IMG/VR virus record: IMGVR_UViG_3300042401_002002
Reading direction: 5' to 3' (one strand)
Origin: a virus
Taxonomy: Duplodnaviria > Heunggongvirae > Uroviricota > Caudoviricetes
Length of the DNA: 64,000 bases
Shown here: positions 9,103 to 60,579 of the stretch, in pieces
Numbering within the stretch: the first letter of the stretch is position 1
How the letters are laid out: each line of letters opens with the position of its first letter
Notes under the pieces: model-generated
Told to the model about the DNA's origin: nothing
The model's input: the letters and a program-made list of their open reading frames with translations, nothing else
Databases searched by the model: none
Translations under genes and position numbers: made by a program

Positions 9103-9511
9103 CTACATAATTCTTCCATAAATAACTAATTGATTATTATGTAATTTTCTAAGAATGTCACCATCAAATGTTTCGCTAGTTCTAAGAAATAAACACATCA
9201 TATTTGATGCATAATTGAAAGGTAGTACGAGTCTTTTGTCTATTATTAATTTCATCTTGGAACTATTATTAATTTATTTTTATAGTGTCTAATATCAGTT
9301 TTGGTTCCTATTAATGTTGGAATAAAAACTGAACAAAATTTCCAATCTCGGTCATTACTTTTGTTTTTTATTACAAGTTTCATATTTCCTCGTATCTTGA
9401 TAATATTATTAACTTATTGTAAATTCTAAAACCAATTAATCTATCTTCTAGGTAATCTTGATATATTTCAAAGTCAATTTTAAGATGTTGGGTGTGAATG
9501 TCTAATTTCAT
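9103..9511 (-). repeat. MKL micro-ORF array 1 (3 units)
   Basis: 9380-9511 MKLDIHTQHLKIDFEIYQDYLEDRLIGFRIYNKLIILSRYEEI; 9252-9383 MKLVIKNKSNDRDWKFCSVFIPTLIGTKTDIRHYKNKLIIVPR; 9103-9255 MKLIIDKRLVLPFNYASNMMCLFLRTSETFDGDILRKLHNNQLVIYGRIM; ATGA overlaps. Confidence 0.85.
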
Positions 9512-9515
9512 TGTA

Positions 9516-9758
9516 TTATACAATTTTAAGTAATTCAGTTAATGACTTGACCATTATTTTATCAAAATTACCTTCTATTTTATCAGTTATTTGTAAATAT
9601 AACATATCTTTAAAATTATTATCACTAACACATAACTTGATATTGTTATAAATAAATTCAAAACCTTCATCATTTATTTTAAAATCAATTATAACATTAT
9701 ATTCTTTTTGAATAAGTGTAATATAATTATTACAAAAGTTTGTATACATAATTTTCAT
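9516..9758 (-). CDS. hypothetical protein
   Basis: 80 aa; its ATG overlaps the TGA of the preceding micro-ORF. Confidence 0.6.
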   Translation of the reverse strand: MKIMYTNFCNNYITLIQKEYNVIIDFKINDEGFEFIYNNIKLCVSDNNFKDMLYLQITDKIEGNFDKIMVKSLTELLKIV

Positions 9759-9877
9759 CTTCTAACTATTATTAATTTATTGGACCAATATTTGACACTA
9801 CCGCAACTTGCACTAATATTTCTAGGAACATTAATATGAAAACTAGTTAAACTTATTGTTTTTATTTCAAGTTTCAT
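9755..9877 (-). CDS. MKL micro-ORF coupled to the primase stop
   Basis: MKLEIKTISLTSFHINVPRNISASCGSVKYWSNKLIIVRR; ATG overlaps primase TGA. Confidence 0.8.
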   Translation of the reverse strand: MKLEIKTISLTSFHINVPRNISASCGSVKYWSNKLIIVRR

Positions 9878-10803
9878 TTTACATATTTTTTAACTTCATC
9901 AATTCCTTTATGTCTGTGAATTTCATTTAAATCCAACAAAGTTTTTTTACCATCAATAACACCTTCGTCTTTTAAATGAACATTTACAATATACTCAATA
10001 TTAAACAACTTAAGTTGTTCTTCTATGTCAATTGAGTTATTTTTAGCATCAGGGTCAAGTATTAATATTACCGAACTATTGTTTTCAATCAACCTATTCA
10101 TTAGGTGTGGTGTTAACACTTTACCAGCTAAAGGTATTGTATTTATTGGTATTGTGGTTAAATCCGGATAACCTTCAACTAAATAAACTGGGTGGTTCCA
10201 ATTGATATTAGACTCGTTTAAGATAATCTCTTTTTTCTCCACTTTTGATGCATCGTAAGCAGGTTTAATTTCTTTTCTGAATGAACGTGCTATGAAGAAA
10301 TTTAACTTCTTAAAACGGTTATATGAAGGGAATATGATGCGTCCTTTGTACCAACCTTCTAAACAGAATCCAACATTTAAATATCTTAATGTATTATCTG
10401 TTATTTTTCTGTCATTTATAACATAATTATAAGCTTCTAAATGTTCTATGTTTGTTTTATCCATTTGTGTGAATGGAATAAACTCTTTTGGTAAAGTAAC
10501 ATAAGTGTTTTTCTTTTTCTCAACTGTTTCACCTATGTCAATGAGGTTGTAATCCATGTATGCTTTGTAATCTTCTTTTGAAGCATACTTTTTTAACATA
10601 TAATGAACCTTTCCTCTGTATCCACATTTCCAGCAATTGTAAATGTGTTTGTTTGGTTGTAACGTAATACCTAGGTTATGTTTGCCATCAGGTTCTTCAC
10701 CATTTTCTTCAGCACATCTTGGACAATTAAAATCCAATGTGCTTGCGTTTGCGTGAGTATGTTTAGGTTTACCTAGTGTTCTGATTAGTATGTCTAATAA
10801 CAT
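9874..10803 (-). CDS. DNA primase (Zn finger + TOPRIM)
   Basis: CPRC...CWKCG zinc-binding domain, GRIIFP, YLVEGYPD, LILDPD. Confidence 0.9.
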   Translation of the reverse strand: MLLDILIRTLGKPKHTHANASTLDFNCPRCAEENGEEPDGKHNLGITLQPNKHIYNCWKCGYRGKVHYMLKKYASKEDYKAYMDYNLIDIGETVEKKKNTYVTLPKEFIPFTQMDKTNIEHLEAYNYVINDRKITDNTLRYLNVGFCLEGWYKGRIIFPSYNRFKKLNFFIARSFRKEIKPAYDASKVEKKEIILNESNINWNHPVYLVEGYPDLTTIPINTIPLAGKVLTPHLMNRLIENNSSVILILDPDAKNNSIDIEEQLKLFNIEYIVNVHLKDEGVIDGKKTLLDLNEIHRHKGIDEVKKYVK

Positions 10804-10808
10804 GATTT

Positions 10809-11491
10809 TTATCTTATGTAAATTATTAATTCATTAAAAAAATCTTGTTCTTTGAAGAGTTTTAAATAATACTGGTCGTTTATTAAAACATTTTCAAATG
10901 TATCTGTATGGTCTACTATACCGTTTATTTTAAGTTTCATCTTTTTCTAACTAACATTAAATTTAATAAACCACATTCATTGAAATTGCTATAAATGTAA
11001 TTGGTTGAATATTGTTGAGTAATTTCTTTGTACAACCAATATTCTTTATTGAATTCTCGTCTTGTTATTTCAATTCCAAGTTTCATCTTTTTCTAATAAT
11101 TAACATATCTAATAACATATCACTATTAAGATAAATTTATTTATCATCAAATTTATTTATTTTTTTATATATCCAATATTCGCTATCAAACTGTAATGTC
11201 GGATTTATGTCTGTTATAAGTTTCATCTTTTTCTAATAATTAATATATCCATTAACATATTACGTTCATCGTTTAGTAGATAATTGTTTAATTTATTTAT
11301 TGATTTAAACATCCAATATTCGTTATTGAAAGATAAATTTATTCCAGTTTTTTCAATCCAAAGTTTCATCTTTTTCTAATAGTTAACATATCACATTTAT
11401 GTAAACCTATACGTTTTTCTTGAATAAGTTTATAAATAAGATTATATTTATTGAAAGTTAAATCAATATTTACGTTTATACCAAGTTTCAT
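10809..11491 (-). repeat. MKL micro-ORF array 2 (5 units, one with an internal TAA)
   Basis: 11366-11491 MKLGINVNIDLTFNKYNLIYKLIQEKRIGLHKCDMLTIRKR; 11223-11369 MKLWIEKTGINLSFNNEYWMFKSINKLNNYLLNDERNMLMDILIIRKR; 11083-11226 (TAA at codon 30); 10937-11086 MKLGIEITRREFNKEYWLYKEITQQ...LNLMLVRKR; 10809-10940 MKLKINGIVDHTDTF...NELIIYIR. Confidence 0.85.
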
Positions 11492-11847: not shown

Positions 11848-13572
11848 TTAACAATACAAAATTTTTATACAACTTCTTTTAGTACTCATGCTACGTCTTT
11901 CTGTTACCCTACTCAACGAACCTCGCCATCTGCATTGCTTACCGAGGTTAAACAAGCTAGTCCACGTCATATTACTAATGTTCACATTTGAAACATCCTT
12001 CTTGTTCTCTTCGAGAACTCGTACCACGGTGTTCAAAGTACTTTCACTAATCAGTGGTAAACCTGTACAGTTTTTTATAAATCTATACAATCCTCTTCGT
12101 CCTATCTCAATAGCACTATTAATAGGGTCGAAGTAATTGTACATCATATTTCCAATAAATGATGAATAACTTGGTTGAACTTTAATCAATTCAATACCAT
12201 ATTGATTTGTTAACTTCGTTATCATCTCTTCGAGCAAACCTCTATTCCAAACCACTTTGGTTTGTCTGTTCGCTTCCTTGCCTTTTTTATTTACTTCTTT
12301 ATCTTCTTTAAAATCCAAGTCTTCCATTACAAAACTTGAACATTTATAATGATTTGCTACGTTAAAGAGTTGAATTGTCATCTCTTTAATCTCATATTGT
12401 TGTTTGTTTTTATGATACAATCTTTCTTCTTTTGTTGCTTCCTGTGGAAGCTTCTTTGTAAAGAAACTTAAATCATAACAGAACTTATGTATTACTTTAA
12501 CAGCATGTTTACCATGTTCAATGTCTTCATTATCAAAATCACGTTCTAAAATTGACACACCTAGGTAACTAGGGTTCATGTCAATCGAAATACAACGACC
12601 TTCTATTTTGTTAGTTAACCTTAATTCTCTTTCTTTAATATGATGTTGATGACAAACAGTTTTAATTAAAGTAGTTTGAACTTCTTTATCATTATATTTT
12701 TGTTTAATCTCTTTAATTTGTTGTTTCTTTTCAGTTTCATCTAACTTCCAACCGTACAATTTCTCATCATCGTAAGAAATAGAAACTGTTTTATTTGAAA
12801 CAAACAAACTTAAACTAATTGATTTAGTTTGAGATAACTCAACAAGTTTATTAATTAACCATTTTTTATTTTTAGGTACTGAAATAGTTAGATTAACTTT
12901 AGTACCATGTTTAGGTTTATAAACCAACAAACCTTCATTTAGTTTACTAAAGTCAAAGAATCTATTACCTCTATAGTTTTTCTCACCAATTATAAAGAAA
13001 GACCTTAATCTTTGATTAGTGTACTTTTCTTTTTGTTTGGTTATTCTATCAAATAGTTCGGTTAATTCAGTTTCAAGGTGTAAAATTTCAGTTTCATCAA
13101 CAGAAGATGACAAGTAACTAATTAATTTATTATATTGATTATGAAGGTGTGTTAAATGTTGTAGGTTTTTTCTACCACCAAACACGGGTTTGTTATTTAA
13201 TGAACTTCTTAACCTTGGTAATAACGTTTGTAATTTATGAACAGAATGTTTTTCTTTCTTTGTTAACTCTTTTTTATCATTACGTTTTTTAAATAACTCA
13301 TCAAGTTCCTCTTGTTTAGTTTCAATACGTTTAAGAAGTTTCTTTCTGTTTGTTTCGCATTGTTTAAAGAAAGTCTTAACTACAGTTTCAAGTGAACTAT
13401 ATTCTGTATCATTTAAACCAAATTCATTTTTAGTTTTATCATCATATTCTCTATTACCTGATATATCCAAAGTTTTTAACATGTACCTGAAAGCATAGCC
13501 ATGTTGTTTCATTTTGTCTTCGACAAAAGAAGCATCACTGTTATGAATAATAGGTAGTTTAAGAGATAACAT
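11848..13572 (-). CDS. tnpB: TnpB-like RNA-guided RuvC nuclease (solo, no Zn ribbon)
   Basis: ISIDMNPS, FVMEDLDF, VQPSYSSFIG, FDPINSAIEIGRRG; homologous layout to 2935-4551. Confidence 0.8.
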   Translation of the reverse strand: MLSLKLPIIHNSDASFVEDKMKQHGYAFRYMLKTLDISGNREYDDKTKNEFGLNDTEYSSLETVVKTFFKQCETNRKKLLKRIETKQEELDELFKKRNDKKELTKKEKHSVHKLQTLLPRLRSSLNNKPVFGGRKNLQHLTHLHNQYNKLISYLSSSVDETEILHLETELTELFDRITKQKEKYTNQRLRSFFIIGEKNYRGNRFFDFSKLNEGLLVYKPKHGTKVNLTISVPKNKKWLINKLVELSQTKSISLSLFVSNKTVSISYDDEKLYGWKLDETEKKQQIKEIKQKYNDKEVQTTLIKTVCHQHHIKERELRLTNKIEGRCISIDMNPSYLGVSILERDFDNEDIEHGKHAVKVIHKFCYDLSFFTKKLPQEATKEERLYHKNKQQYEIKEMTIQLFNVANHYKCSSFVMEDLDFKEDKEVNKKGKEANRQTKVVWNRGLLEEMITKLTNQYGIELIKVQPSYSSFIGNMMYNYFDPINSAIEIGRRGLYRFIKNCTGLPLISESTLNTVVRVLEENKKDVSNVNISNMTWTSLFNLGKQCRWRGSLSRVTERRSMSTKRSCIKILYC

Positions 13573-13809
13573 TAAAGAGATATTTTATTATAAATAGTAT
13601 AAAGTTGAAAAAATAAATAAAAAATTCTATTTATTTAAATATTTTAATCCAGATATTACAATAATCTGGTATTTTAAGTTATTTTTTTAACATCTTTCTT
13701 TGTTTTTAATGGTTCTGGATATTTTAATTTTATATATTCCTCATGTGAAATTATGTTGCACATATCAGGAATAACGTGAAAACGTTCCTTTAACATAATA
13801 TGAATAACT

Positions 13810-14667
13810 TTATATTTTTGAATATAATGAATTAACATTATATATACGTTTATAACCAACATCATGTTTTATATTATAAGTTTGGTTCATTAAGAATGTT
13901 CTGATACCTGATTGGTTTAATTCTTTAAAATTACTAAAGCAATCATCTAAAAAAGTATCACATTTTAATTGTTTTAAAATATCAACTTTACTTTTACCAT
14001 TTGTCGTGTACACAGGTACACAAGGTAAATTATTTTTTGAAATCCACTCTTCTGTCCATGAAGATGGTATTGACCTAGATGTTACATAAAAATCAGGTTC
14101 AAATGTTAAGTTAGTTGTAATTGGTTTTATATTTAACCAAAATTCTTTATCATTTTTAATTTTATTCCATAAAACATTATATTCATACGGAAAGTTCCAG
14201 TGTGATTGGTCAAAACTATTATTAGTATTTATACCTTCTTTTTTAGCTAACTCAATAAATGAAGCTGAAAAGTCTGCTAAAACACCATCAATATCTAAAC
14301 CTATTTTTTTATTGGATAAATATTTATGTTCCCTGTCATCAATAAAATTACTGTTTTCATACCCATCAATCAAAAAACCAATATTACAAGCAGCTAATGC
14401 TAGATGATATAAACCTGATTCAGGGTCGAAATCTTCACCATTTTTATATGCTTCAATATGTCTAAGAAGTGAACCTATTGTTTCTGAAGCTTTTAACCCT
14501 TTTTTCCAATTATTAGAACCGTCAGAAATTATATTCCCGTCATTATCTTTAATACTATATTTATTTTTACCATATAATAACCCTTTAGATATTTCTCGTG
14601 TTAATGATGATGGTATTAGATTATAAGGTAATTTACCTTCGTTATATCTTAATCCTTTATTTTCCAT
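13810..14667 (-). CDS. dATP/dGTP diphosphohydrolase-like domain fused to HAD 5'(3')-deoxynucleotidase
   Basis: GLRYNEGK...YGKNKY...NWKKG...SLLRH...GEDFDPESGLYHLALAACN, then IGLDIDGVLADF and FLDDC; start taken at MENKG after a TAGGTTTG box. Confidence 0.75.
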   Translation of the reverse strand: MENKGLRYNEGKLPYNLIPSSLTREISKGLLYGKNKYSIKDNDGNIISDGSNNWKKGLKASETIGSLLRHIEAYKNGEDFDPESGLYHLALAACNIGFLIDGYENSNFIDDREHKYLSNKKIGLDIDGVLADFSASFIELAKKEGINTNNSFDQSHWNFPYEYNVLWNKIKNDKEFWLNIKPITTNLTFEPDFYVTSRSIPSSWTEEWISKNNLPCVPVYTTNGKSKVDILKQLKCDTFLDDCFSNFKELNQSGIRTFLMNQTYNIKHDVGYKRIYNVNSLYSKI

Positions 14668-15502: not shown

Positions 15503-16099
15503 ATGAATTACCTTCCTTCTAGGAAAGCTAGTCAAGTCCTTGGGTTACACCCAAATACTCTTAGAAAATATGCAGACAACGGAACAATACATACAATTAA
15601 AAACAACGCTGGTCAAAGACTGTATGACGTTCAGTCATACATCAACTTGTCCTTGTCTGTTGATGAATTCGTGTGTTATTGTAGAGTCTCTTCTAAAAAA
15701 CAACAAGATGATTTACAGCGACAAGTCGCTTACATGTCTTCCTTGTACCCTAACGCAACCATTATTCAAGACATCGGTTCAGGTGTCAACTACAAACGAA
15801 AAGGTCTTCAAACCTTACTGGAACGACTTATCAAAGGAGATAAGTTCACACTTGTGGTTGCCCACAAAGACAGACTTGTTAGGTTCGGATTTGAACTCTT
15901 TGAGTTCCTCTTTAACCAAAACAATGGAAAAATCTTGGTTCTCAACATTAACTCAGGAGACCCTCAGACCGAACTCACAAACGACATTCTCAGAATTCTG
16001 TACGATTACTCGTCCAGCGTTCCAAGACTTAGAGAGTACTATAATAAAATCAAGGAAGATTTCCCTGAATATAACAAAGAAACAGAAGAAAAAACTTGA
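15503..16099 (+). CDS. tnpA: IS607 serine transposase
   Basis: MerR-like HTH (LGLHPNTLRKYA), YCRVSSKKQQDDLQRQ, DIGSG, KDRLVRFGFE. Confidence 0.92.
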   Translation: MNYLPSRKASQVLGLHPNTLRKYADNGTIHTIKNNAGQRLYDVQSYINLSLSVDEFVCYCRVSSKKQQDDLQRQVAYMSSLYPNATIIQDIGSGVNYKRKGLQTLLERLIKGDKFTLVVAHKDRLVRFGFELFEFLFNQNNGKILVLNINSGDPQTELTNDILRILYDYSSSVPRLREYYNKIKEDFPEYNKETEEKT

Positions 16100-17177
16100 T
16101 GTTTGGTCTGGCGTTGCCAGATATGTTTACAACAGAACTGTTGATTATATTTCATTAAAAACCGGTTTCGGTGAACCACTTGAAAAATGGAATCTTGTTT
16201 TTAATGAAATTAACAAACAACTACCTGAATGGTGTAACACAACACCATATCAAATTAAAAAGATGGCTTGTAAAGATGCGTTCAAAGCAAGAACATCTTC
16301 TTTAGCTTTGTTGAAAAACAAAAAGATTAAGTTCTTTAAGTTAAACTATAGAACGAAGTTAAATAAAAACAATATGTATATACCAAAAGATGCAGTTAAA
16401 TCTAAAGGAATATACCATACACTGTTAGGTGAAACTAAATTTAAAGAGAATCTTCCAATCATAGAATATGATTGCAGGTTAATAGAAGAACATGGTGAGT
16501 ACTTCTTATGTGTACCATACAAACAAACTATAGCTAAATTCAACAACCAAGAAGTGCTTTCAAAAGCTGTAGCTATAGACCAAGGAGTGAGAAGTTTTAT
16601 AACTTATTACTCAGAGGATTCAGTTGGTAAGATAGGTAATGAAGACCATGTAATACTATTTAATCTTTGCAAACATATTGATGATTTAATATCAAAAACC
16701 AAGTTAAGTAAAGGGTTTAAAAACCGTAAAAAACGTAAGTCTTATAAAAAAGCAATGAATCGTTTAAAAGCAAAGTTACGCAACTTAGTTGATGAATTAC
16801 ACTGGAAGTCAATTAACTTTTTAGTTAATAATTACAATGTAATAATATGTCCTAACTTTAAAGTTAGCAACATGGTATTAGATGATGTTAAACGAAAGAT
16901 AAGTAGCAAAACAGTACGCAACATGTTAAACTTTAGGTTTTATGTTTTCAAGCAACGCTTGAAACTTAAATGTAAAGAGAGAGGTTGTGTATTGATTGAA
17001 ACAAGTGAAGAGTTTACAAGTCAGATAGCAAGTTGGACAGGTGAGAGAGTTAAAGACATAGGTGGTTCAAAAGAGATTAAAAGCGAAGGTGTTGTAGTTG
17101 ATAGAGATTACAACGGAGCTAGAAACATATTTATCAAGTGTATCCAAGAGAACTTGGATACATCAAAGATAAATTAA
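15540..17177 (+). CDS. tnpB: IS607 TnpB (true start uncertain, overlaps tnpA)
   Basis: AIDQGVRSF (RuvC-I), CPNFKVSNM, SEEFTSQ, DRDYNGARNI (RuvC-III). Confidence 0.88.
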   Translation: MGYTQILLENMQTTEQYIQLKTTLVKDCMTFSHTSTCPCLLMNSCVIVESLLKNNKMIYSDKSLTCLPCTLTQPLFKTSVQVSTTNEKVFKPYWNDLSKEISSHLWLPTKTDLLGSDLNSLSSSLTKTMEKSWFSTLTQETLRPNSQTTFSEFCTITRPAFQDLESTIIKSRKISLNITKKQKKKLDVWSGVARYVYNRTVDYISLKTGFGEPLEKWNLVFNEINKQLPEWCNTTPYQIKKMACKDAFKARTSSLALLKNKKIKFFKLNYRTKLNKNNMYIPKDAVKSKGIYHTLLGETKFKENLPIIEYDCRLIEEHGEYFLCVPYKQTIAKFNNQEVLSKAVAIDQGVRSFITYYSEDSVGKIGNEDHVILFNLCKHIDDLISKTKLSKGFKNRKKRKSYKKAMNRLKAKLRNLVDELHWKSINFLVNNYNVIICPNFKVSNMVLDDVKRKISSKTVRNMLNFRFYVFKQRLKLKCKERGCVLIETSEEFTSQIASWTGERVKDIGGSKEIKSEGVVVDRDYNGARNIFIKCIQENLDTSKIN

Positions 17178-22083: not shown

Positions 22084-22596
22084 TTATTTTGTAAAAATAA
22101 GTAAATAATTTAAACCTAAATTATTTAATGGGATTACATTAGAATAATTACCTATACATAATACATATTCATAACTAATTTTAAACTTGTATTCTTCTTC
22201 TATATAATATTTTAGTTTCATCTTTTAAATATTATTAAATGTCCTGAATGAGTTTTAATAGTTACAACATTGTCTTTTATTTTATTTTCTATCTTTTTAT
22301 AAATCAAACCTTCACTAAATGTAAAGATAGAACTAGTTAAATTTCCAATTTTTAATTTCATCTTTTAAATAATTTAAGGTCGTTTAATAAATAATTGTAA
22401 GATTTTGTTACATCTTCATCTATAATTAAATTATAAATACCACCTTCGGTAAATTTCCAACTTGATATTAAATCAGATATAAGAAGTTTCATCTTTTAAA
22501 TGTTAATAATTTGTTATTTAATGTATTAGCTGATAAAAGTAATTGAAAAATAACCTTATCAAATATTATGTGGTTACTGGCTCTTTTAAGTTTCAT
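22084..22596 (-). repeat. MKL micro-ORF array 3 (4 units)
   Basis: 22489-22596 MKLKRASNHIIFDKVIFQLLLSANTLNNKLLTFKR; 22358-22492 MKLLISDLISSWKFTEGGIY...NDLKLFKR; 22218-22361 MKLKIGNLTSSIFTFSEGLIY...GHLIIFKR; 22084-22221 MKLKYYIEEEY...NYLLIFTK. Confidence 0.88.
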
Positions 22597-30270: not shown

Positions 30271-30362
30271 GATATTGAAATTAAAAATTATATCCCTTTC
30301 AAACTTTTTACAGTTATCAGGGATATAAGGGAGATTTTAAAAAGTTAAATAGTTTAAAAAAA

Positions 30363-30545
30363 CTATTCAGCTTTACCTAAAGCAGCGATAGCGATACGAA
30401 TATCTTGAGCTGATGATTTTACATCTTGTAAACCAACACGTACTCTAGTTTTTGCAGCTTTGTTACCTGCGTCAATTTTTGTAGCGTCAGCTTTCAATGC
30501 TACTACAGATGTCTCTAATCCTTCGATTTGTTCTAAAATTGTCAT
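30363..30545 (-). CDS. histone H1-like (Hc1-type) DNA-binding protein
   Basis: GNKAAKTRVRVGLQDVK motif as in Bacteroidota Hc1-like proteins; start taken at MTILEQ. Confidence 0.7.
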   Translation of the reverse strand: MTILEQIEGLETSVVALKADATKIDAGNKAAKTRVRVGLQDVKSSAQDIRIAIAALGKAE

Positions 30546-30624: not shown

Positions 30625-31048
30625 TTAGTAACTATTGATTATTAACGTGTTATACCTACTAAATATTTTTAATTCATTTAAATGAATATCTCTAATAACA
30701 ACATATCTTAAAAAATCTTTATTTATTATGGTTGATAAACCTGAATCAGTAAAGGACTGATAAAATTGGTTGTTTATTTTAAGTTTCATCTTTTATATAT
30801 TAAAATTTCATTTATAAAAGGGTATGATAATTGTGGATTACCACCTAGATTAAACATAATAACTATTTCAGTATTTTTAAAGTATGTATTTTTTGAAAAG
30901 AATAATTGTAATTTCATCTTTTATATAACCTTAATTTGTTGTTAAAATGTAAATGAAACATCGCATTAGTTTTACCACTTAAAACATAATATATACCATG
31001 ATTAATGAAATAATCAAATTGATTTGCTGTGTATATTTTAAGTTTCAT
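30625..31048 (-). repeat. MKL micro-ORF array 4 (3 units)
   Basis: 30914-31048 MKLKIYTANQFDYFINHGIYYVLSGKTNAMFHLHFNNKLRLYKR; 30786-30917 MKLQLFFSK...NEILIYKR; 30625-30789 MKLKINNQFY...NELKIFSRYNTLIINSY. Confidence 0.88.
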
Positions 31049-31056
31049 CTGTAATA

Positions 31057-31467
31057 TTATTTAAAATATTCAATTAATATAATACCTAAACTAAACAAAC
31101 AACCTATTATGAATTTAGTTAATAAAGGTTTAAACGGTGATTTTAATAGAACTTTGTCCATAAATGCATTATTTTCACTAGTACCAATATATTCAGTAGG
31201 GAGGTTTCTTAGTTTGTTTAAATAATAATCAGCAATTAACCAATTAATATCCCAAAGAAGAAATATAAGCAAAGGTATCGACCAAACTGATAAGTGATAT
31301 GTTAACCCTAATATAGGTGCAATAATACAGGGAATAATAACCCTTAATAAAGGTTGATGTTCAATAAATTCATCATTTTTTATTTTCTGATAATCAGTAA
31401 CAATGTGGTCAATCATTGAAATAACCCAAATAGTTAAGTTGATAATGAGTAGAGGTAGTAAAATCAT
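31057..31467 (-). CDS. multi-TM membrane protein
   Basis: Four hydrophobic segments. Confidence 0.65.
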   Translation of the reverse strand: MILLPLLIINLTIWVISMIDHIVTDYQKIKNDEFIEHQPLLRVIIPCIIAPILGLTYHLSVWSIPLLIFLLWDINWLIADYYLNKLRNLPTEYIGTSENNAFMDKVLLKSPFKPLLTKFIIGCLFSLGIILIEYFK

Positions 31468-31469
31468 GG

Positions 31470-32002
31470 TTATCTTGGATAAATAATTAGTGAGTTTTGA
31501 AAGACTTTGAAATAATTGGAGCTTGGACTTGTTTTACCATCCTTTAAATATAAACCACTACGGTAAGTAAATAAACTAGTAAGTTTAGTTCTTATATGTA
31601 ATCTCATTATCTTGGATATAAAGTTATTTCGTTATAATTTATTAATATTTCTGTATTCGGTAAACCTAAAAGTAACCCACCAGTTACAGTGTTTTGTAGT
31701 TTAACGGCTCTGTAATTAATTACTAGTCTCATCTTCGGTAAATTATTAGTTTATTTTTTTATAAACACCAATATGACCATCATCAAAGTGTATTCTCTTA
31801 TCTGTTAAATATTCACCTAAAACATACCACGTAAATTGATTAATCCTGATTGTTGTTTTAAGTTTCATCTTTTGTAAATTCTAAGGTTATTTAAATATAC
31901 AGTTTTTGCTTTGTTGATTTTTTCAGCAAAATCACCCACTAAAATATTAAATATACTGTAACATTCTAATTTTTCAATAGGTTTGGATATTTTAAGTTTC
32001 AT
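31470..32002 (-). repeat. MKL micro-ORF array 5 (4 units, one frameshifted)
   Basis: 31865-32002 MKLKISKPIEK...NNLRIYKR; 31729-31868 (A7 frameshift before NKLIIYRR); 31607-31732 MRLVINYR...NEITLYPR; 31470-31607 MRLHIRTK...NSLIIYPR. Confidence 0.85.
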
Positions 32003-32268
32003 CTTTTCTCCAATTTATGTCTGCAAAATATCCTAATTATATCAACCAAATCTTGTTCGGTTTCTATTGGGTAGAAATTTCCGTTAAATAACTCAACAGT
32101 GAAATTGTTATCAATACATTCTGATTTACAATTTGTAATCAAAGCTTCTTGATAAAACTTTTTATCAATTTGTTCTAAATCCAAACAAAGGTAATAATCT
32201 TTATCACCATCGAATTCGTTACATAGTTCACGTTTGAAACCGTATTTTTTTAATATTTCTTCTTTCAT
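31999..32268 (-). CDS. hypothetical protein embedded in the micro-ORF chain
   Basis: 89 aa, both ends use the AAGATGAAA overlap. Confidence 0.65.
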   Translation of the reverse strand: MKEEILKKYGFKRELCNEFDGDKDYYLCLDLEQIDKKFYQEALITNCKSECIDNNFTVELFNGNFYPIETEQDLVDIIRIFCRHKLEKR

Positions 32269-32513
32269 CTTTTATAAATTCTTTAAGTTTTATTTAATAA
32301 ATATATTTAAACAGTTTTTACTCAGTAAAATATCTATAATATCTAACTGTAAGTAGGTTAATTCAAAATCTGAATCTTCAGACCAATGTTCTATATTAAG
32401 TTTCATCTTTTATACTGTAATATTATGTTATTATATTTTAAATCAATGATAATTTTGATAATATCTGGATACATAAATTCAATATCAGACCATGAGTACT
32501 GTTAAAGTTTCAT
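32265..32513 (-). pseudogene. two degenerate MKL micro-ORF units
   Basis: 32403-32513 MKL*QYSWSDIEF...NNIILQYKR; 32265-32406 MKLNIEHWSED... stops early with its C-terminal motif out of frame. Confidence 0.7.
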
Positions 32514-32515
32514 AT

Positions 32516-32851
32516 TTATCTAATTTTATTCAAATATTTCTTTATTAAATTATCATCTTCGTAAATAACACCAATAGTTACTTCGTATTGATTTTTATCT
32601 TTACTAACCTTGGATATTTTACAATCTTTAAACAACATCTTGGTTTTTTCATCAAATTCAATAACAAATTCAAGTCCTAGCTTTTCAGTATTGGTTAGTT
32701 TTTTAATACTTTCAAATACAAATATAACATATTCACCCTGTACTCCAACACAAGAACCGTTTTTTATTTTTTCGTATTCAAAAATAGGTAATGTTTTGCA
32801 TTCTATTTCGTAAATTAACCCTTTAGTTGGTGTTATTAAGTTTGCTTGCAT
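32516..32851 (-). CDS. hypothetical protein
   Basis: 111 aa. Confidence 0.6.
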   Translation of the reverse strand: MQANLITPTKGLIYEIECKTLPIFEYEKIKNGSCVGVQGEYVIFVFESIKKLTNTEKLGLEFVIEFDEKTKMLFKDCKISKVSKDKNQYEVTIGVIYEDDNLIKKYLNKIR

Positions 32852-33041
32852 CTTTGTAAATGTATTTCTTGTATAAATAGACTAATAAACTTAGTATTGC
32901 TGCTAGTATTAATAGTGCAGGTATAATACCTAGAGGTAATAAAATTATAAACCAATTATAGGTTATTATTTTGGTTAGTTTTAAATAAATCAACATTATT
33001 TGTAGTTGACCTATTAGGATGTATAAGTAGTTGCGTGTCAT
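32823..33041 (-). CDS. small 2-TM membrane protein
   Basis: LIYLKLTKIITYNWFIILLP motif typical of small phage TM proteins. Confidence 0.65.
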   Translation of the reverse strand: MTRNYLYILIGQLQIMLIYLKLTKIITYNWFIILLPLGIIPALLILAAILSLLVYLYKKYIYKDASKLNNTN

Positions 33042-34115
33042 TGTTTTAATATAATAATGTAGTTTATAAAGTGCATACTATAGTTTTGTTTGATTAAAAT
33101 ATGTTTTATTAAGCTATCATTCAAAACGTTGCTCCAACTGTAATCAAATATATTAAGTTTCATCTGTCGTAAATTATTAGTTTATTGTAATGTGTTTTTA
33201 CAGTTTTTATATAATTTAATTGTTTACCTGTATATATTACAAAATCAGTAAAAAGAAATATTTTAAGTTTCATCTTTTAATTAATAAAATTTCATTAGAA
33301 TGATAACGTTTTTGTAAAACAAAAAACTCTGTTGTTAAATATTTAGGTACGTTATAATTAGGAATAACTTGGGTTTTAAGTTTCATCTTTCAAATATAAT
33401 TAATTTATTATAACGGATTTTGTCAATAATATAATTTAAAGACTCATCATGTTTTACTGTAAAACCTTTGTAAGGTACTATATCTAGTATTTTAAGTTTC
33501 ATCTTACAAAGATATAAATAATATTTTTAGAAACAACGCATTTTAGTCTATTTCCGAAAATAATTCTTCCATTAACATTTTCTATGTAACCTGAATCTAA
33601 ATTTATACCTGTTCTATTAAAGTCAAGTTTCATCTGTTATAAGTTCTTAATGCGTTATAACGTTTAAAATAAATTACAGCAATTAATGTACTAGATGTAA
33701 ATTTAACCCAATTTGTACTTTGAGTATTAAATATTTTAAGTTTCATCTGTAAGTTAAATATAATGAATCAGTTTTAAATGTGGTCCATACATCTTTTTTG
33801 ATTAACAAGTTAAATGCTAATGTATAATATTCTTTTTTATTATTCTTTGAATCTGGATTTATCTTAAGTTTCATACCCTTCGATGAATTAATAGTTTGTT
33901 AGAACGTTTATCTTTACGTTGAACATGAATATCAATAATAAATTCAAGAAAATTAATAGGAAATATAGTTCTTTTAAGTTTCATCTTTGGTAAATTCTTA
34001 TTTTATTATTCCATGTTTTGTTATGTAGTTTACCAGATAAACCTTTTGTTAGTAAATCAAAACTAGTTGTCTCGTTATAATTTAAATCACTTAAATTTAA
34101 TATTAGAAGTTTCAT
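33038..34115 (-). repeat. MKL micro-ORF array 6 (9 intact units)
   Basis: ATGs at 34115, 33984, 33874, 33746, 33633, 33502, 33386, 33273, 33163, all chained by ATGA overlaps; e.g. MKLKILDIVPYKGFTVKHDESLNYIIDKIRYNKLIIFER and MKLKIFLFTDFVIYTGKQLNYIKTVKTHYNKLIIYDR. Confidence 0.92.
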
Positions 34116-34119
34116 CTTT

Positions 34120-35184
34120 TTAAACTTTTTTACTAAATGACTTTTCTTTCAAAATCGTAGCGTAGAATGGTTCACAGAAACTCTTTAAACTACCATTCCA
34201 ATGCTGCATGAAACCAATTTCGTCAAATATTCTAATTAAATTACGTGAACCTCTATTTTCTTCATCTAAAGGTAGTTCACAAGCTTCTTTTAAGTTGTGA
34301 ATATCATTTTTGGTAACAAAAGGTTCCAATAAATTAATTATTTTATAGTTGTTTTCGTATAGTGATATACCTAACTCTTCGTCTTGTCCATTAATACCGT
34401 ATTTAATGTTATCTAGTACTAATAAAGGTTTCTTTTTGGTTAAAGTGCGTTCATTAATTAATTCCTCAGTTCTTTCAAGTATAAACTTAATATCTATCGC
34501 TTGTGTTTTTATCTCAGGAAATAACTTAATTAGTGTGTCTTCACCTAATCCTTTTACACCATATATATTATCACTAGTATCACCACAAAATGTCTTAACA
34601 ATAGCTAAGTTTTTGTAATAATGTTTGAAAAATAAATGATAATTATCTTTACATATTAAACTCTTTTTAGAAGCTAAATAAACTTTAATTGTATCAGAAT
34701 ATTGTAATAACTGTAATAAATCGACATCACCAGTATAAACAGTGATTTTTTCATCTTCATGGTATTGTTTACAATACACAGAAATTAAATCATCAGCTTC
34801 AATTTCATCATGTGCCATTACTTGTCTAATGAATAACTCTTCCAATATATTTTGTAAACATATCTTGGTTCTTAATAAGGATTCTTTGTTTGCTTCCTCT
34901 TTACGAATATCTTTTTCATCAAGAATTATTTTGGTAGTAAAAGATTTATGCATCCTGGTTGCTTTATAGTTACCTACTAAGTTGTTTCTTAGTTTACCAT
35001 TATTCTGACCATCCCAAACAAAAACAATCTTGTTTGCTGCTAATTGTTTAGCCAAGGTTCTTAATGTAATTAAAGATAATAAAACACCAGATATATTTCC
35101 AAATTCTGGAGTATAATGATTTCCGTTCACAGCGTGAGAACGTTTATATAATGATGAAGCATCTACTAGTAATGTGTGTCGCAT
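34120..35184 (-). CDS. 5'-3' exonuclease / T4 RNase H-like flap nuclease
   Basis: LLVDA, FVWDG, YKATR, EADDLI, TGDVDLLQL, GDTSDNIYGVKGLGE. Confidence 0.92.
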   Translation of the reverse strand: MRHTLLVDASSLYKRSHAVNGNHYTPEFGNISGVLLSLITLRTLAKQLAANKIVFVWDGQNNGKLRNNLVGNYKATRMHKSFTTKIILDEKDIRKEEANKESLLRTKICLQNILEELFIRQVMAHDEIEADDLISVYCKQYHEDEKITVYTGDVDLLQLLQYSDTIKVYLASKKSLICKDNYHLFFKHYYKNLAIVKTFCGDTSDNIYGVKGLGEDTLIKLFPEIKTQAIDIKFILERTEELINERTLTKKKPLLVLDNIKYGINGQDEELGISLYENNYKIINLLEPFVTKNDIHNLKEACELPLDEENRGSRNLIRIFDEIGFMQHWNGSLKSFCEPFYATILKEKSFSKKV

Positions 35185-35187
35185 AGG

Positions 35188-37290
35188 TTATTTGTTAAAT
35201 GTAAATAATTTATTTGTTTCTGAGAATTCTATCTTAAGTTTACCGTTTAAGAAACTGTTACCAATATGTGTTTCTTTGAAATTCTTGTAAGTTATCTGAA
35301 TTAATTCAAGTTTCATCTTTTGTAAGTAAGAATAAAGTTGTAACTTTGATGGTGTAAGTCATCCTCTAGTTCATCTAAAGTGAATTTGATGTGTGTATTT
35401 TCTGTTATAGTTAATTTCATCTTCTGTATAAAATTAAAGTATTATAAAACTCATAATTAATATCATCTTGTAAATCAGCTAATATAAAAGACATATTGTA
35501 AGTCTGTTTTTTAAGTTTCATCTTTTATAAATTATAATTTTATTGCTTCTCTTATCACGAATATCTTCAATTAACTGTAATTCATTGAATGAGAAGAATA
35601 TATACCAATCACTTATATCAAGTTTCATCTTTTATAAATTATAATTCTATTAAACCTATCATTTTCAAAATCTTCAATAAATTGTAATTCACTAAAAGTG
35701 AACATTATATAGAAATTACTAACGTTGAGTTTCATCTTTTAAAGATTGTTAAGTTGTCTTTGGTAAATTATTAATCTGTTATAATATATGATATTAATAT
35801 CGTCATAAATCTGGCGAACACTGAAGTCAATTAATACAAAAGGTACTATTTTTAGTTTCATCGTACAAAGATAATAATTTTTATTTATAAAACAAGTTTC
35901 ATCTTTTGTAAATTGATAAAACGTTAATATAATATTCTTTATGTTGTACTGTGTGGTAAATATTTACCTCTGACTGGAAATCAATATTATTAGTGAATCT
36001 TACTGAAACGAAACTTGACATATTATTTATGTTAAGTTTCATCTTTTGTAAATTGAAATTTGATTACTATTATTAATAACATCAATTAGTTCTATTTCTA
36101 ACCATTCAACGTTGAATTTAATTTCTTTGGTTATTTTGTTTATATATAACATCATCTTCGGTATATTACTAATAAATTATGTAACGTTGTTGGTGGATTT
36201 CCTAAATCAACTACTCTAAATTTAGGTTGTAAGTAAAATGTGTAATCGTGAATATCTAATTTCATCTCAAATAAATTGTTATTTCGTTTAGAAAAACCGA
36301 CATGTCTCTTTGTTTATTTTCAACAAGATGTACGTAAGCAGTGGATAAACAAAAATGTTCATAAGTGTATTTAGCTATGTTGTCTATTATTAATTTCATC
36401 TTTGGTAAATTGTTATTTCGTTAATAAATCCTCTAAGATTTCTACATTCATCCTGTACAAGATGTTTATAAACTTTGCTGTAACTGAACGGTTTATTTGT
36501 ATATTTATCTATAATTATTTTCATCTTTTGTAAATTGTTAGTTCATTTAGAAGTAGCTCAAGATATTTATTGTTTGTTTTTAATTTACGAAAAACATTAC
36601 TTCCGCTGAAATTTATTATTTTATCACTATAAAATAATTTTCTTGTTTCTATTTTAAGTTTCATCTTTGGTAGATTTTTATCGTATTACAATGATATTTT
36701 ATATTAACAAGGGAGTAGTATTGTTCAGTTAATAACATAACTATAATATTAATTTTGTTATTGGTAAATTTAAAATTTTGAGTTGAATGTATTTTAAGTT
36801 TCATGTTCTAAATAAAATAAATACACGATTTATTTCCATAACTGTCGGATTTAAATCAAAGTTAGGGTTAAATATAGTTTGTTGTATATATACAGTTGTT
36901 AGGTTAGATATTTTAAGTTTCATCTTTTGTAAGTTGTTAGTTGATTATTGTACCAATCAATTAGTATGCCTTTTGGTCCTTTTAATGTTTTATACAAATC
37001 ACTATACTTAAAATCTATGTTTGCTTGATTTTTAAATATCTTAAGTTTCATCTTATATAAATCCTTAGTTCTATAAAATCATAATCTTCTCTAGAATTTA
37101 AATCAGTTATATCAAATTCAGGTAACTGATAATAATGTATTTTTAATTTCATCTTTTGTTATCTTTTGAATATTGATATATAATTAATAGACTCGATTAC
37201 ATTGACCATTTTTATTTGATGAAAAATTAATCTGTATCTCATCGTTTTATTGAAATTTAAAGCTGTGTTTTTGTTTATACCTAGTTTCAT
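35188..37290 (-). repeat. MKL micro-ORF array 7 (18 units: 17 ORFs + 1 promoter stub)
   Basis: ATGs at 37290, 37152, 37051, 36923, 36804, 36664, 36524, 36399, 36265, 36155, 36042, 35902, 35861, 35735, 35628, 35521, 35420, 35316; consensus MKLKI...NxLxIYKR. Confidence 0.93.
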
Positions 37291-37313
37291 AGATGTTCCC
37301 ATATTGTTGAACG

Positions 37314-37321
37314 CAAAGATA
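37314..37321 (-). promoter_or_regulatory. Bacteroidota -7 promoter box heading array 7
   Basis: TATCTTTG (TAnnTTTG) 23 nt upstream of the first unit. Confidence 0.6.
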
Positions 37322-37377
37322 GTTTTTATTTTTGAGAAATAAAAATGTCCGTTAATTATTTTAACGAACAAGGGTTT

Positions 37378-38859
37378 TTAGATTATGTTTTGTTGTTTTA
37401 GAAATTCGGTTAACTTTTTTTCGACATCTTCGTTATATCGAATACGAAGTAAGGGTATGTTGTTGGTTAGGCAATATTCGTTTTTGATTTGGTCACGTTG
37501 TTTAATAGTGTTGAATGTTTCTTCACCACCGAAATAATTAATAGGTTGAAAGTGTTGTTTACCATCATATTCTATTAAAATATTGTGTTCAGTTAAATAA
37601 AAATCAAACGGTAATTCTCTTTTATGAACACATCCAAAAAATTTCTTTTCTATTTCAAAATTTATATTATGTTCAGTTAAAATCTCACTTATCCTAGTTT
37701 CACCTTTTGATGCCACACATTTTGAACAGCCACCACTTGCACTTAAATGTGTATTTGCTGAAATTTCAAAATCACCGTGTTCTTCGCATGTAATAATTAC
37801 TTTATTTTTTGAAAGTGTATAATTAGTTTTACTATAATTATATTTATTACCATGTATTTCTTTAGCTTTTTGAATAAATTCATCGTTTGTTAACCTATTC
37901 CCTTCATCTGCGCACATTTTACAACCCCCACCTAGTAGGTGAGTATTTGGAATTTGTTCAAATTCACCATGAACTTTACATTTTATGGTAACTTTTTGTT
38001 TATTATGTTTGTAATCTACTAAACTATAGTCGTATTTATCACCATGTATTTTTTTGGCTTTTTCTATAAAACGTTCAGTATTGTTGTAATGTGTATTACA
38101 TTTTTTACAACCTATTTTTTCATTTAAAAAACTACTTTTTAAAATCATGAAAGGACCATGTTCTTTGCAAATGATTTTAATTTTATCTTTTTTAGTACCA
38201 TGTACAGTTTCATCGTAAATATATTTATCACCATGAACTTCCATTGCTCTTTTAATAAATTCTTCACCAGTAATTGATAGTTTTTCTCTGGAACAACGTT
38301 CACAATCACATAATAGGTGACTTGATGGTGTTGTTTTAAATAACCCGTGTTTATCACATCTTAATTCTATGTGACTTTTCATGTTAATAAAATTTATATT
38401 GTCATAATTAAATTTTTCACCATGAACTTCTTTAGCTTTTTGAATAAATTCTTCTTTAGTTATTGTATGATTTGAACATTTTTTACAACCTGTTGAGTTT
38501 ATATGGTTGGTAGGTCTTTGTTCAAAATATTCACCACATGAATTACATTTTATTTTAATTTTAGTATCAGCGTTTATATATTCGCTTTCACTGTAATCGT
38601 ATTTATCACCATGTTTTTCTTTAAAAACTTCCTTAAAATTGTCTTTATTAACACTATATTTTGGTCCACAACTTGGACATGTTAAATTTTTACGTATCTT
38701 AGATGCTTTATTTAAAGTAAATGGTCCGTGAACTTTACATGTTATAGTAACAGGGTCGTTATTACTGATATATTTGGTGAGTTCGTAAGTATAATTTTCA
38801 CCATGTATTTTCTTGCATTGTTCAATATACTGTTCGTTGGTTAAGTTTTTAGCGTTCAT
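37378..38859 (-). CDS. DUF723-repeat homing-type endonuclease with C-terminal PD-(D/E)xK/Vsr-like nuclease
   Basis: Six repeats of FI.KA..VHG.KYDYS...I.C..HG.F...H...GC..C; SKGE..I, LPFDFYL, IEYDGKQHF. Confidence 0.85.
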   Translation of the reverse strand: MNAKNLTNEQYIEQCKKIHGENYTYELTKYISNNDPVTITCKVHGPFTLNKASKIRKNLTCPSCGPKYSVNKDNFKEVFKEKHGDKYDYSESEYINADTKIKIKCNSCGEYFEQRPTNHINSTGCKKCSNHTITKEEFIQKAKEVHGEKFNYDNINFINMKSHIELRCDKHGLFKTTPSSHLLCDCERCSREKLSITGEEFIKRAMEVHGDKYIYDETVHGTKKDKIKIICKEHGPFMILKSSFLNEKIGCKKCNTHYNNTERFIEKAKKIHGDKYDYSLVDYKHNKQKVTIKCKVHGEFEQIPNTHLLGGGCKMCADEGNRLTNDEFIQKAKEIHGNKYNYSKTNYTLSKNKVIITCEEHGDFEISANTHLSASGGCSKCVASKGETRISEILTEHNINFEIEKKFFGCVHKRELPFDFYLTEHNILIEYDGKQHFQPINYFGGEETFNTIKQRDQIKNEYCLTNNIPLLRIRYNEDVEKKLTEFLKQQNII

Positions 38860-55893: not shown

Positions 55894-56374
55894 ATGAAAT
55901 TAGACTTTATATTTAGAAATGAAAAAATTTGTTCAGATTTTTTTCGTTCAGTTCTTTTTAAACTAAACTATCCAAAAGTGACTTATACTTGTATTTATAG
56001 TTATTACAAATCTGATGAAATAACTGAAAATAATATGAAAAATAATCAAATTTATATATTTTCAAGATGAAATTACAAATAGCTAATTCTGAACTAAAAA
56101 TCGAAAGATTTCAACTAACCAAACAAGAATCTAGACAAACTTATTCTTACTTACATTTTAGTAAAGATATCAATCAAATGACTTTATTAATTAATAATCA
56201 CTTACATATATTTACAAGATGAGATTAAGAATACATCTCAGCGAACAACCTATTTGTTCAGACATTTATAAATCAGAAATTTCTGGGAATTTTTGCATAT
56301 TAACTAAACATAAAATTAGTGGTAGTGAAATCATCAACTTTATTATCATTGGAAATTTACACACATTCAACTGA
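55894..56374 (+). repeat. MKL micro-ORF array 8 (3 units, plus strand)
   Basis: 55894-56070 MKLDFIFRNEKICSD...NNQIYIFSR; 56067-56222 MKLQIANSELK...NNHLHIFTR; 56219-56374 MRLRIHLSEQPICSD...GNLHTFN. Confidence 0.8.
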
Positions 56375-60123: not shown

Positions 60124-60457
60124 CATAGATAATTTTATAAATATTCTTGAACAAACAAAAAAAGATTGTTTAAGTATTAGTAATGAATTAATCAAAGCTG
60201 ATTATTTAATTCAACTAGACAATATTGAAGTATGTGATGAAAATATTAATTCATATAACACATACTTTAAAGACAAAGTTAGTTATTTTGGTACACAATT
60301 TAATGGAAAAACAATTCCTTATTTTTGTTATATCAATAACACCGAATTTACACAGATTTTAACTATTGAAGATATTAATAAACTAGAACCTAATATTGAA
60401 ATAGAAAAAGTTTATATTGAAGAATTAGAGTTTGCTTTTAATAAATTAACATTGTAA
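60107..60457 (+). CDS. hypothetical protein
   Basis: 116 aa. Confidence 0.55.
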   Translation: MKIMNNIDNFINILEQTKKDCLSISNELIKADYLIQLDNIEVCDENINSYNTYFKDKVSYFGTQFNGKTIPYFCYINNTEFTQILTIEDINKLEPNIEIEKVYIEELEFAFNKLTL

Positions 60458-60579
60458 TGAAACTTAAAATAACATATTACGATAGACAATATTCTTTAAT
60501 ATTAACTTGTACAGTAGATACCAGCAATAAACTTGAACTAAAGTACAACAAAAACAGACTTTTTATCTTTAATAGATAA
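60457..60579 (+). CDS. solitary MKL micro-ORF
   Basis: MKLKITYYDRQYSLILTCTVDTSNKLELKYNKNRLFIFNR; TAATG overlap with the upstream gene. Confidence 0.78.
   Translation: MKLKITYYDRQYSLILTCTVDTSNKLELKYNKNRLFIFNR

Follow-up and report, generated by a model that had tools for sequence, protein, structure and literature searches.

The stretch of DNA analysed here, referred to as the window, comprises 64,000 nucleotides (nt) of the Caudoviricetes record IMGVR_UViG_3300042401_002002 in IMG/VR. On its minus strand, between the genes for an endonuclease and a 5'-3' exonuclease, lies an array of very small genes that reads from 37302/37290 down to 35188 (Table 1). The array consisted of 17 intact open reading frames (ORFs) of 34-47 amino acids (aa), each started by ATG, and of one decayed remnant, which brings the total to 18 units. 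A preliminary description made from the letters of the same DNA had proposed 18 units in 2.1 kb, flanked by an exonuclease and an endonuclease, and both the count and the flanks were confirmed. The pitch between the units was 105-144 nt. This array was the largest of several in the window, which together held about 50 units of the same family.

The units are joined by a recurring motif. With at most one mismatch, AAGATGAAACT was found 50 times in the window, nearly always on the minus strand, whereas 3.9 occurrences were expected. The 24-mer by which the preliminary description had defined the junction was found 13 times with up to three mismatches, against an expectation of 0.02; the motif is therefore real, and it has to be read on the minus strand. 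At 14 of the 18 array junctions, the stop codon of one unit overlapped the start codon of the next as ATGA, which places the next ORF in the -1 frame, and up to 10 of these overlaps were consecutive. The remaining four had a TAA stop and a spacer of 3-23 nt and still kept the ATG-AAA-CTN start. TGA served as the stop codon in 35 of the 40 family units of the window. ORFs of at least 30 aa spanned 97.8% of the coding strand of the array and 15% of the opposite strand, and the same measure in 500 dinucleotide-preserving shuffles gave a mean of 9.5% and a maximum of 34%. What appears at the DNA level as a repeat consists of the codons for the C-terminus of one unit, the stop-start overlap AGATGA and the codons for the N-terminus of the next unit; what appears as a spacer is the variable core of the protein. 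The pattern of conserved repeats and unique spacers described previously holds for the spacing only, since the repeat is degenerate and itself coding.

Cluster look-ups placed the proteins of the window on a contig of 308,574 bp, indicating that this uncultured virus is a jumbo phage. In the cultured-phage database the best single-protein identity was about 31-32%, indicating that an annotated close relative is absent there. Relatives covering the locus were recovered by exact-protein look-ups, and the family was examined within the window and these fetched relatives. L019 and L020 span the helicase, an endonuclease of 596 aa and the array from unit 0 to unit 3 and beyond. The helicase is likewise present in L275 and L276, which come from a different sample; their endonuclease has 594 aa, and their part of the array comprises units 0-10. 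L022, about 94% identical to the window, covers the other end of the array (units 8-17) together with the exonuclease and the arrays that follow it. L021 was more divergent, with 73-89% identity over aligned blocks.

Table 1. Features of the array and its surroundings in the window
Feature	Position	Strand	Description
Endonuclease	37378..38859	-	493 aa; repeated Zn-ribbon modules; DUF723; PHROG 'HNH endonuclease'; upstream flank
Terminator-like hairpin and T-run	37346..37370	-	Directly after the endonuclease; nearly invariant in L275
Leader	37291..37345	-	Upstream of the array; holds TATCTTTG (37314-37321), which fits the -7 box of Bacteroidota, TAnnTTTG
Unit 0	37159..37290	-	43 aa, MKLGINK...ISIFKR; alternative ATG at 37302; TAA end, 6-nt spacer before unit 1
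Unit 1	37048..37152	-	34 aa; ATGA overlap with unit 2
Unit 2	36920..37051	-	43 aa; extra units X1 and X2 of L019/L020 lie at its downstream junction
Unit 3	36801..36923	-	40 aa, end ...LFRT; absent from L275/L276, slot taken by non-homologous X1'
Unit 4	36661..36804	-	47 aa
Unit 5	36521..36664	-	47 aa
Unit 6	36396..36524	-	42 aa; paralogue of unit 7 (core z = 6.8)
Unit 7	36262..36399	-	45 aa; tandem duplicate in L275/L276 (138-nt insertion)
Unit 8	36152..36265	-	37 aa
Unit 9	36039..36155	-	38 aa, start MML; missing in L275 (117-nt deletion)
Unit 10	35899..36042	-	47 aa
Unit 11	35862..35902	-	Decayed remnant MKLVL* (ORF 35885-35902) and spacer; ATG lost in L022
Unit 12	35739..35861	-	40 aa; C-terminal extension ...IYQRQLNNL; TAA stop; 3-nt spacer
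Unit 13	35625..35735	-	36 aa; recent tandem duplicate of unit 14 (core z = 8.4; 107-nt period, Tandem Repeats Finder)
Unit 14	35518..35628	-	36 aa; beta-alpha-beta model, predicted local distance difference test score (pLDDT) 75
Unit 15	35417..35521	-	34 aa
Unit 16	35313..35420	-	35 aa
Unit 17	35188..35316	-	42 aa, end ...FTFNK; TAA stop; 3-nt spacer, then exonuclease ATG
Exonuclease	34120..35184	-	354-aa 5'-3' exonuclease (FEN family); downstream flank, embedded in the chain
Other arrays	9103-11491, 22084-22596, 30625-32406, 33038-34115		Family units in the window

Selection on the units and on their junctions

The coding status of the units was assessed with the orthologues in the relatives. 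Pooled over 30 orthologous unit pairs, the ratio of nonsynonymous to synonymous substitution rates (dN/dS) was 0.22, 0.33 and 0.46 for L019, L022 and L021, respectively. By region, the ratio was 0.32 in the N-terminal 5 codons, 0.40 in the core (bootstrap 95% confidence interval 0.32-0.53) and 0.27 in the C-terminal 9 codons; for comparison, it was 0.05 in the exonuclease and 0.045 in a neighbouring ORF of 111 aa. The length differences between orthologues were all multiples of 3. Substitutions were mainly transitions (CT 42, AG 31, AT 26, AC 19) with no adenine-specific signature. The most diverged orthologue in the comparison with L022 was unit 17 (76% aa identity). The comparison of orthologues showed that the units evolve as protein-coding genes under relaxed but real purifying selection, which excludes a non-coding repeat-spacer array and speaks against peptides of irrelevant sequence.

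In a check proposed by the preliminary description, the synonymous positions of the junction were more conserved than the protein requires. The phage uses TTA for 64% and CTT for 12% of its leucines, and ATT for 54% and ATA for 37% of its isoleucines, genome-wide. In the family units, Leu-3 was encoded by CTT in 28 of 39 cases (p = 7e-18) and Ile-5 by ATA in 27 of 31 (p = 1e-8), and the tyrosine at position -3 was encoded by TAC in 13 of 20 cases compared with 29% genome-wide (p = 9e-4). The biases at Leu-3 and Ile-5 were replicated in 34 units of the relatives for which the window has no close orthologue (CTN in 25/34 and ATA in 16/25), and the bias at the tyrosine was not clearly replicated in the relatives' units. 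At the equally conserved N, L and I of the C-terminal motif, codon usage matched that of the genome (p = 0.4-1.0), indicating that this motif is constrained at the protein level. Furthermore, the proportion of synonymous differences between orthologues (pS) was 0.14 at the termini compared with 0.22 in the cores (z about 2.5, our own calculation from the counts). Codon usage and orthologue divergence thus showed the core around AGATGAAACT..ATA to be additionally constrained as a nucleotide sequence, beyond the need of the protein. Candidate causes of this constraint are the context for re-initiation, the propagation of a consensus junction via recombination, or another factor. CTT followed by AAA also yields a TAA at +8 to +10 in the third frame; as read from the sequence, the consensus junction thus ends one frame, opens another and blocks the third.

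Turnover of whole units between relatives

The unit content of the relatives was compared with units 0-17 of the window, the order of which served as the reference. L019 and L020 had two additional units (X1 and X2) between units 2 and 3. In L275 and L276, unit 3 was replaced by a degenerate unit (X1'), unit 7 was tandemly duplicated by a clean insertion of 138 nt, and unit 9 was missing through a clean deletion of 117 nt. The remnant unit 11 had lost its ATG in L022. The next array (33038-34115, minus strand; L022:2193-3797) contained 10 units in the window and 14 in L022, with a block of six L022 units in place of two unrelated units of the window. After the exonuclease, L021 had only three or four units, compared with ten in the window.

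In the nucleotide alignments, homology ended and restarted within AGATGAAA(C/T)T in all aligned whole-unit indels and replacements. Each variant structure was found in two separate assemblies (L019 and L020; L275 and L276), which argues against assembly artefacts. These alignments showed that strains differ by the gain, loss, tandem duplication or replacement of whole units and that the breakpoints all lie inside the junction, in agreement with the gain and loss of cassettes foreseen in the preliminary description. These endpoints point to homologous recombination or slippage between junction copies as the probable mechanism of turnover.

Divergence was patchy at the scale of single units: several units were identical between genomes, and their neighbours differed by 10-15%. 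The assemblies of the relatives tended to break within the arrays, and L019 and L022 both end there, which is consistent with strain heterogeneity. A search for the strain-specific unit X1 elsewhere returned no candidates, but because X1 is not called as a gene in its own contig, this result carries no information on transposition. Outside the largest array, two adjacent units at 9103-9383 (minus strand) shared 97-100% nucleotide identity with L021:17598-17878, whereas the block around them averaged 88% and the other genes shared with L021 were 73-82% identical. Mosaicism at the scale of the unit at 9103-9383 is suggestive of recent exchange.

Properties of the predicted proteins and signals for their expression

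The units share their ends. They start with M-K-L-x-I, end with N-x-[LI]-x-[IL]-[YF]-x-R and have a conserved aromatic residue near position 13; between the conserved ends lies a variable core of about 20-33 aa. The conserved columns of the alignment were M1, K2, L3 and the C-terminal R. The cores of the paralogues in the array were mostly statistically unrelated (median z = 0.41 against shuffled cores), and few neighbours were recognisably similar, namely units 6/7 and 13/14 (Table 1). The units had a median length of 43 aa and a median isoelectric point of 9.5, and they were predicted to be soluble, with neither signal peptide nor membrane segment; the longest hydrophobic run was at most 5 residues, and Cys was present in just 20 of 63 units. 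AlphaFold, with a family alignment of 86 sequences, gave a beta(4-7)-alpha(16-25)-beta(30-33) model with a pLDDT of 75. In this model, the conserved ends plausibly form the two strands, and the variable core the loop and the helix.

The family had no profile match in Pfam, PHROG or PADLOC. When 1.84 billion representative proteins were searched with a profile, only 10 matches had E < 1e-3, all of 42-54 aa, and those whose contigs were looked up lay on the genome of the window or on related contigs. The language-model search of the ESM Atlas gave noise-level scores (0.81 or below), and searches of IMG/VR via single flanking proteins found no close relatives. According to these sequence searches, the family is lineage-specific, highly variable and previously undescribed, and was limited to this phage lineage. 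Signatures made of the junction DNA were also used as queries. A two-junction signature gave 18 chance matches in IMG/VR, which had no family-like ORFs. A three-junction signature, run against metagenome, viral and genome collections, matched hundreds of unrelated tandem repeats, and the only genuine new relative that it brought up was L118. These matches included true arrays of clustered regularly interspaced short palindromic repeats (CRISPR) in L034, L065 and L074. A Subsaximicrobium repeat that initially resembled a 325-kb phage contig was rejected as belonging to a chromosome with 40% guanine plus cytosine.

A terminator-like hairpin and a leader lie between the endonuclease and the array (Table 1), and the stretch of about 90 nt up to unit 0 was nearly invariant between the window and L275, despite the differing endonuclease genes. 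A scan for sigma70 promoters gave 58 sites, compared with 60 in shuffles, and no terminator-like hairpins were found on the coding strand inside the array. The chain also includes conventional genes, such as the exonuclease, separated from their neighbours by 3-4 nt, and the next array, of 10 units, begins 4 nt after the exonuclease.

A Shine-Dalgarno (SD)-like motif was found at none of the 50 large ORFs of the window. The start sites of these ORFs were enriched in A at positions -13 (74%), -12, -6, -5 and -3; 18 of the 50 start as ATGA and 8 in TAATG-type contexts. A at these upstream positions stimulates initiation in the SD-blind bacterium Flavobacterium johnsoniae (PMC6847099). The best match of the exonuclease was to Flavobacterium phages, and together with the start sites this match fits an SD-independent, Bacteroidota-type host. 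In experiments on ATGA overlaps, strict coupling was observed in 13 of 14 gene pairs tested (Huber et al. 2019, PMC6728339). Termination-reinitiation along the array would fit both its anatomy and the absence of SD motifs.

Interpretation and comparison with known systems

The locus is best explained, and in our view quite probably, as a polycistronic chain of microgenes that encodes a variable protein family and whose junction would serve re-initiation as well as the exchange of cassettes. The array would be transcribed from the conserved leader, after the terminator of the endonuclease, and each unit would be translated by termination-reinitiation at AUGA, which would make a ribosome-binding site for each gene unnecessary. 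Units would be gained and lost via homologous recombination or replication slippage between copies of the junction, and the junction would then be both a re-initiation site and a site of cassette exchange. Speculatively, the products would be small, soluble and basic, with a beta-alpha-beta fold whose scaffold is made by the conserved ends and whose variable surface is the core; equally speculative is a role as fast-evolving binders for host takeover or counter-defence. A stronger form of the idea, in which the dual-purpose AGAUGAAACU junction, by combining re-initiation with the exchange of single microgenes, gives the phage population a rapidly reshuffled library of about 40-aa binders on a fixed beta-alpha-beta scaffold, directed against host defences or used for takeover, is tentative and on balance doubtful. 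If it were true, the phage would encode a recombination-based diversification unlike diversity-generating retroelements (DGRs), integrons and the promoter early stem-loop (PeSL) elements of T4-type phages.

Several points weigh against this explanation. Purifying selection on the units was weak (0.4 compared with 0.05 for the exonuclease), and dN equalled or exceeded dS in some of them. Selection for intact chains alone could confine the surviving indels to the unit boundaries. The shared units were colinear in the relatives compared, and the shuffling that had earlier been proposed was not seen as reordering; these relatives are all metagenomic contigs. The predicted accessibility of the mRNA was no higher at the junctions than elsewhere (z = 0.16), indicating that structure does not account for the synonymous constraint. 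TAnnTTTG was not enriched in the AT-rich window (148 occurrences compared with 143 expected), so the promoter call at TATCTTTG is weak, and the assignment to a Bacteroidota-type host is indirect. The fold models were of moderate confidence (pLDDT 70-75, predicted template modelling score about 0.35), an earlier model was weaker, and Foldseek found no structural neighbours in PDB or BFVD (nothing with E < 1). That the array is transcribed, that its units are coupled and that the proteins exist are deductions from sequence.

Selfish or neutral expansion driven by the junction (molecular drive), with proteins of little or no function and the constraint as a by-product of junction propagation or homogenisation, is partly compatible with the explanation above, but on its own we consider it unlikely. 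It would agree with the high turnover of units and the recent adjacent duplicates, with a constraint that is weak relative to that on enzymes, with the tolerance of a decayed remnant and with the unrelated cores of most paralogues. The core dN/dS of 0.40, however, is clearly below 1 even at its upper confidence limit, the C-terminal motif is conserved as protein while its codon choice is free, and many units have stayed intact between genomes that are just 73-89% identical over aligned blocks.

Purifying selection on the core also bears on the idea of a translational relay or filler, in which the ORFs hold ribosomes on a long early or middle mRNA, protecting it from ribonucleases or Rho, or feed the embedded genes, and the sequence of the peptide is irrelevant. 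The tight packing of conventional genes into the chain (gaps of 3-4 nt), a host type without SD sequences and the junction as the best-conserved part would all suit a relay. The 9-residue C-terminal motif and the conserved aromatic residue are, however, kept at the amino-acid level, and the roughly 50 units in the window are more than a relay needs, which makes this reading quite improbable.

Only slightly less probable than the relay is a junction that is the target of a dedicated enzyme, be it a site-specific recombinase, a homing-type endonuclease (compare the neighbouring DUF723 protein) or an endoribonuclease that makes monocistrons. The constraint at the nucleotide level covers a core of roughly 10-23 nt, and a variable endonuclease gene lies directly upstream. 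However, the scan of large ORFs detected no recombinase, its sole match of this kind being the TnpB-like transposase at 15540-17177; the motif has no hairpin, palindrome or structure signal and belongs to no Rfam family, and general homologous recombination suffices to produce the breakpoints.

A non-coding repeat-spacer array, CRISPR-like or of another RNA, in which the ORFs are incidental, is effectively refuted: the regular spacing and the conserved motif of about 24 nt would be compatible with it, but the 17 open frames fill the coding strand far beyond the shuffled sequences, dN/dS is below 1, indels come in multiples of 3, the repeats are degenerate, the spacers are far longer than those of CRISPR, Rfam gave no match, and the true CRISPR arrays returned by that scan bear little resemblance to it. 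Serial programmed -1 frameshifting into a single long polyprotein, for which the -1 shift of the open frame from unit to unit might speak, is just as hard to credit, since a conserved ATG begins every unit, UAC-AAA-AGA-UGA as read from the sequence contains no X-XXY-YYZ slippery heptamer, and the four junctions with TAA and a spacer still keep the ATG start.

If the microgenes of the chain are expressed, microproteins that annotation pipelines overlook or do not name take up several per cent of the genome of a single jumbo phage. The locus is a natural system for SD-independent, Bacteroidota-type re-initiation along long chains of overlapping genes, and its synonymous constraint offers a mutable handle by which the translational and the recombinational roles of the junction could be separated. 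It also bears on the modular turnover of phage genes by short motifs, beyond the PeSLs of T4, and on the roles of very small, fast-evolving phage proteins.

As compared with known systems, the array shows phage genome plasticity of known kinds, but with a new protein family. The nearest of them is the modular shuffling of T4-type phages, in which short PeSL motifs flank small ORFs and are the points of exchange between close relatives (2010, PMC2839356; Comeau et al. 2014, PMC4122927). The array resembles this system in that the small, non-essential-looking ORFs of a large myovirus have short conserved motifs on either side, and in that whole ORFs are inserted, deleted or replaced between close relatives, with the points of exchange in the motif. 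PeSLs, however, are intergenic elements made of a sigma70-type early promoter and a stem-loop terminator around unrelated ORFans, whereas the junction of the array is a coding stop-start overlap without intergenic space (14 of 18 junctions), its ORFs are paralogous, and re-initiation would take the place of a promoter for each gene. The array thus appears to work like PeSL shuffling without being a member of it, as its exchange endpoints fall in the motif but the motif is not an intergenic promoter and stem-loop.

The 4-nt ATGA overlap of co-directional genes is shared with known coupled genes (PMC6728339); these are mostly pairs or short operons for the subunits of complexes, whereas the array chains paralogous microgenes and has an extra synonymous constraint. 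Bacillus phage G, likewise a jumbo phage, shows a comparable large expansion of a very small protein, with about 35 paralogous copies of a zinc ribbon (Iyer et al. 2021, PMC7824862). The units of the array differ in that they contain no Zn-ribbon or known domain, have near-random cores, are strictly chained by overlaps and are more numerous (about 50 in 64 kb). The 'microprotein arrays' of Leptotrichia PEP3458 are chromosomal and encode lipoproteins of 48-81 aa that carry a signal peptide and conserved Cys and Gly residues (bioRxiv 10.64898/2026.08.11.744246). In both systems, up to tens of microproteins are arrayed in tandem, diverse in sequence but sharing an alpha/beta mini-fold according to prediction. 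The units studied here are instead phage-encoded and ATGA-overlapping, have no signal peptide or conserved Cys, and show no homology to PEP3458. Membership in PEP3458 was rejected, since the lipoprotein signal and the residues Cys17/Gly31/Cys34/Gly40/Cys45 were lacking, in keeping with the short hydrophobic runs and the scarcity of Cys.

CRISPR arrays consist of near-identical direct repeats of 23-47 bp and non-coding spacers of uniform length (about 26-72 bp). The array was rejected as a CRISPR, since the repeat was degenerate (13 copies of the 24-mer with up to three mismatches) and the 'spacers' were about 80-120 nt long and contained open frames under selection. An Rfam scan of 32500-38000 gave no hit and only one sub-threshold chance match, so no repeat RNA family was found, and the flanking genes were an endonuclease, a helicase and an exonuclease. 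A DGR target was rejected because the substitutions were ordinary transitions and no reverse transcriptase was found among the large ORFs scanned in the window (the rest of the 309-kb genome lay outside this search). Integron cassettes were rejected, as the junction had no excess of predicted pairing and no integrase was found among the window ORFs scanned.

Further upstream of the endonuclease lies the gene for a DnaB-like helicase. The endonucleases of the relatives (L019:4382-6172 and L275:5987-7771; 594-596 aa) showed little DNA similarity to that of the window, whereas their flanks were about 80-96% identical. This pattern suggests a homing-endonuclease gene that was swapped or remodelled and in which the number of Zn-ribbon repeats varies. 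A few members of the family were found on the plus strand (55894-56222 and 60457-60579), where they lie amid plus-strand genes, indicating that the family tracks the local direction of transcription rather than one DNA strand.

A 545-aa ORF of the window (15540-17177, plus strand) resembles TnpB/IS200-605-type transposases (phrog_506, E = 3e-36). The homologous interval of L021 (about 13872-14244) is only about 370 nt long, indicating that the transposase-like element was apparently inserted in the genome of the window. L021 carries at 13300-14427 (minus strand) the gene for a 375-aa protein with precomputed Pfam matches to Acb1, 2',5' RNA ligase and ART-PolyVal, which is a candidate for a role in counter-defence. 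L021 and L022 also have, immediately downstream of their arrays, a gene for a 60-aa protein of the Hc1 family (histone H1-like, PF07432; L021:3587-3769 and L022:6021-6203), and the region of the window homologous to this neighbourhood lies near 30300-30500.

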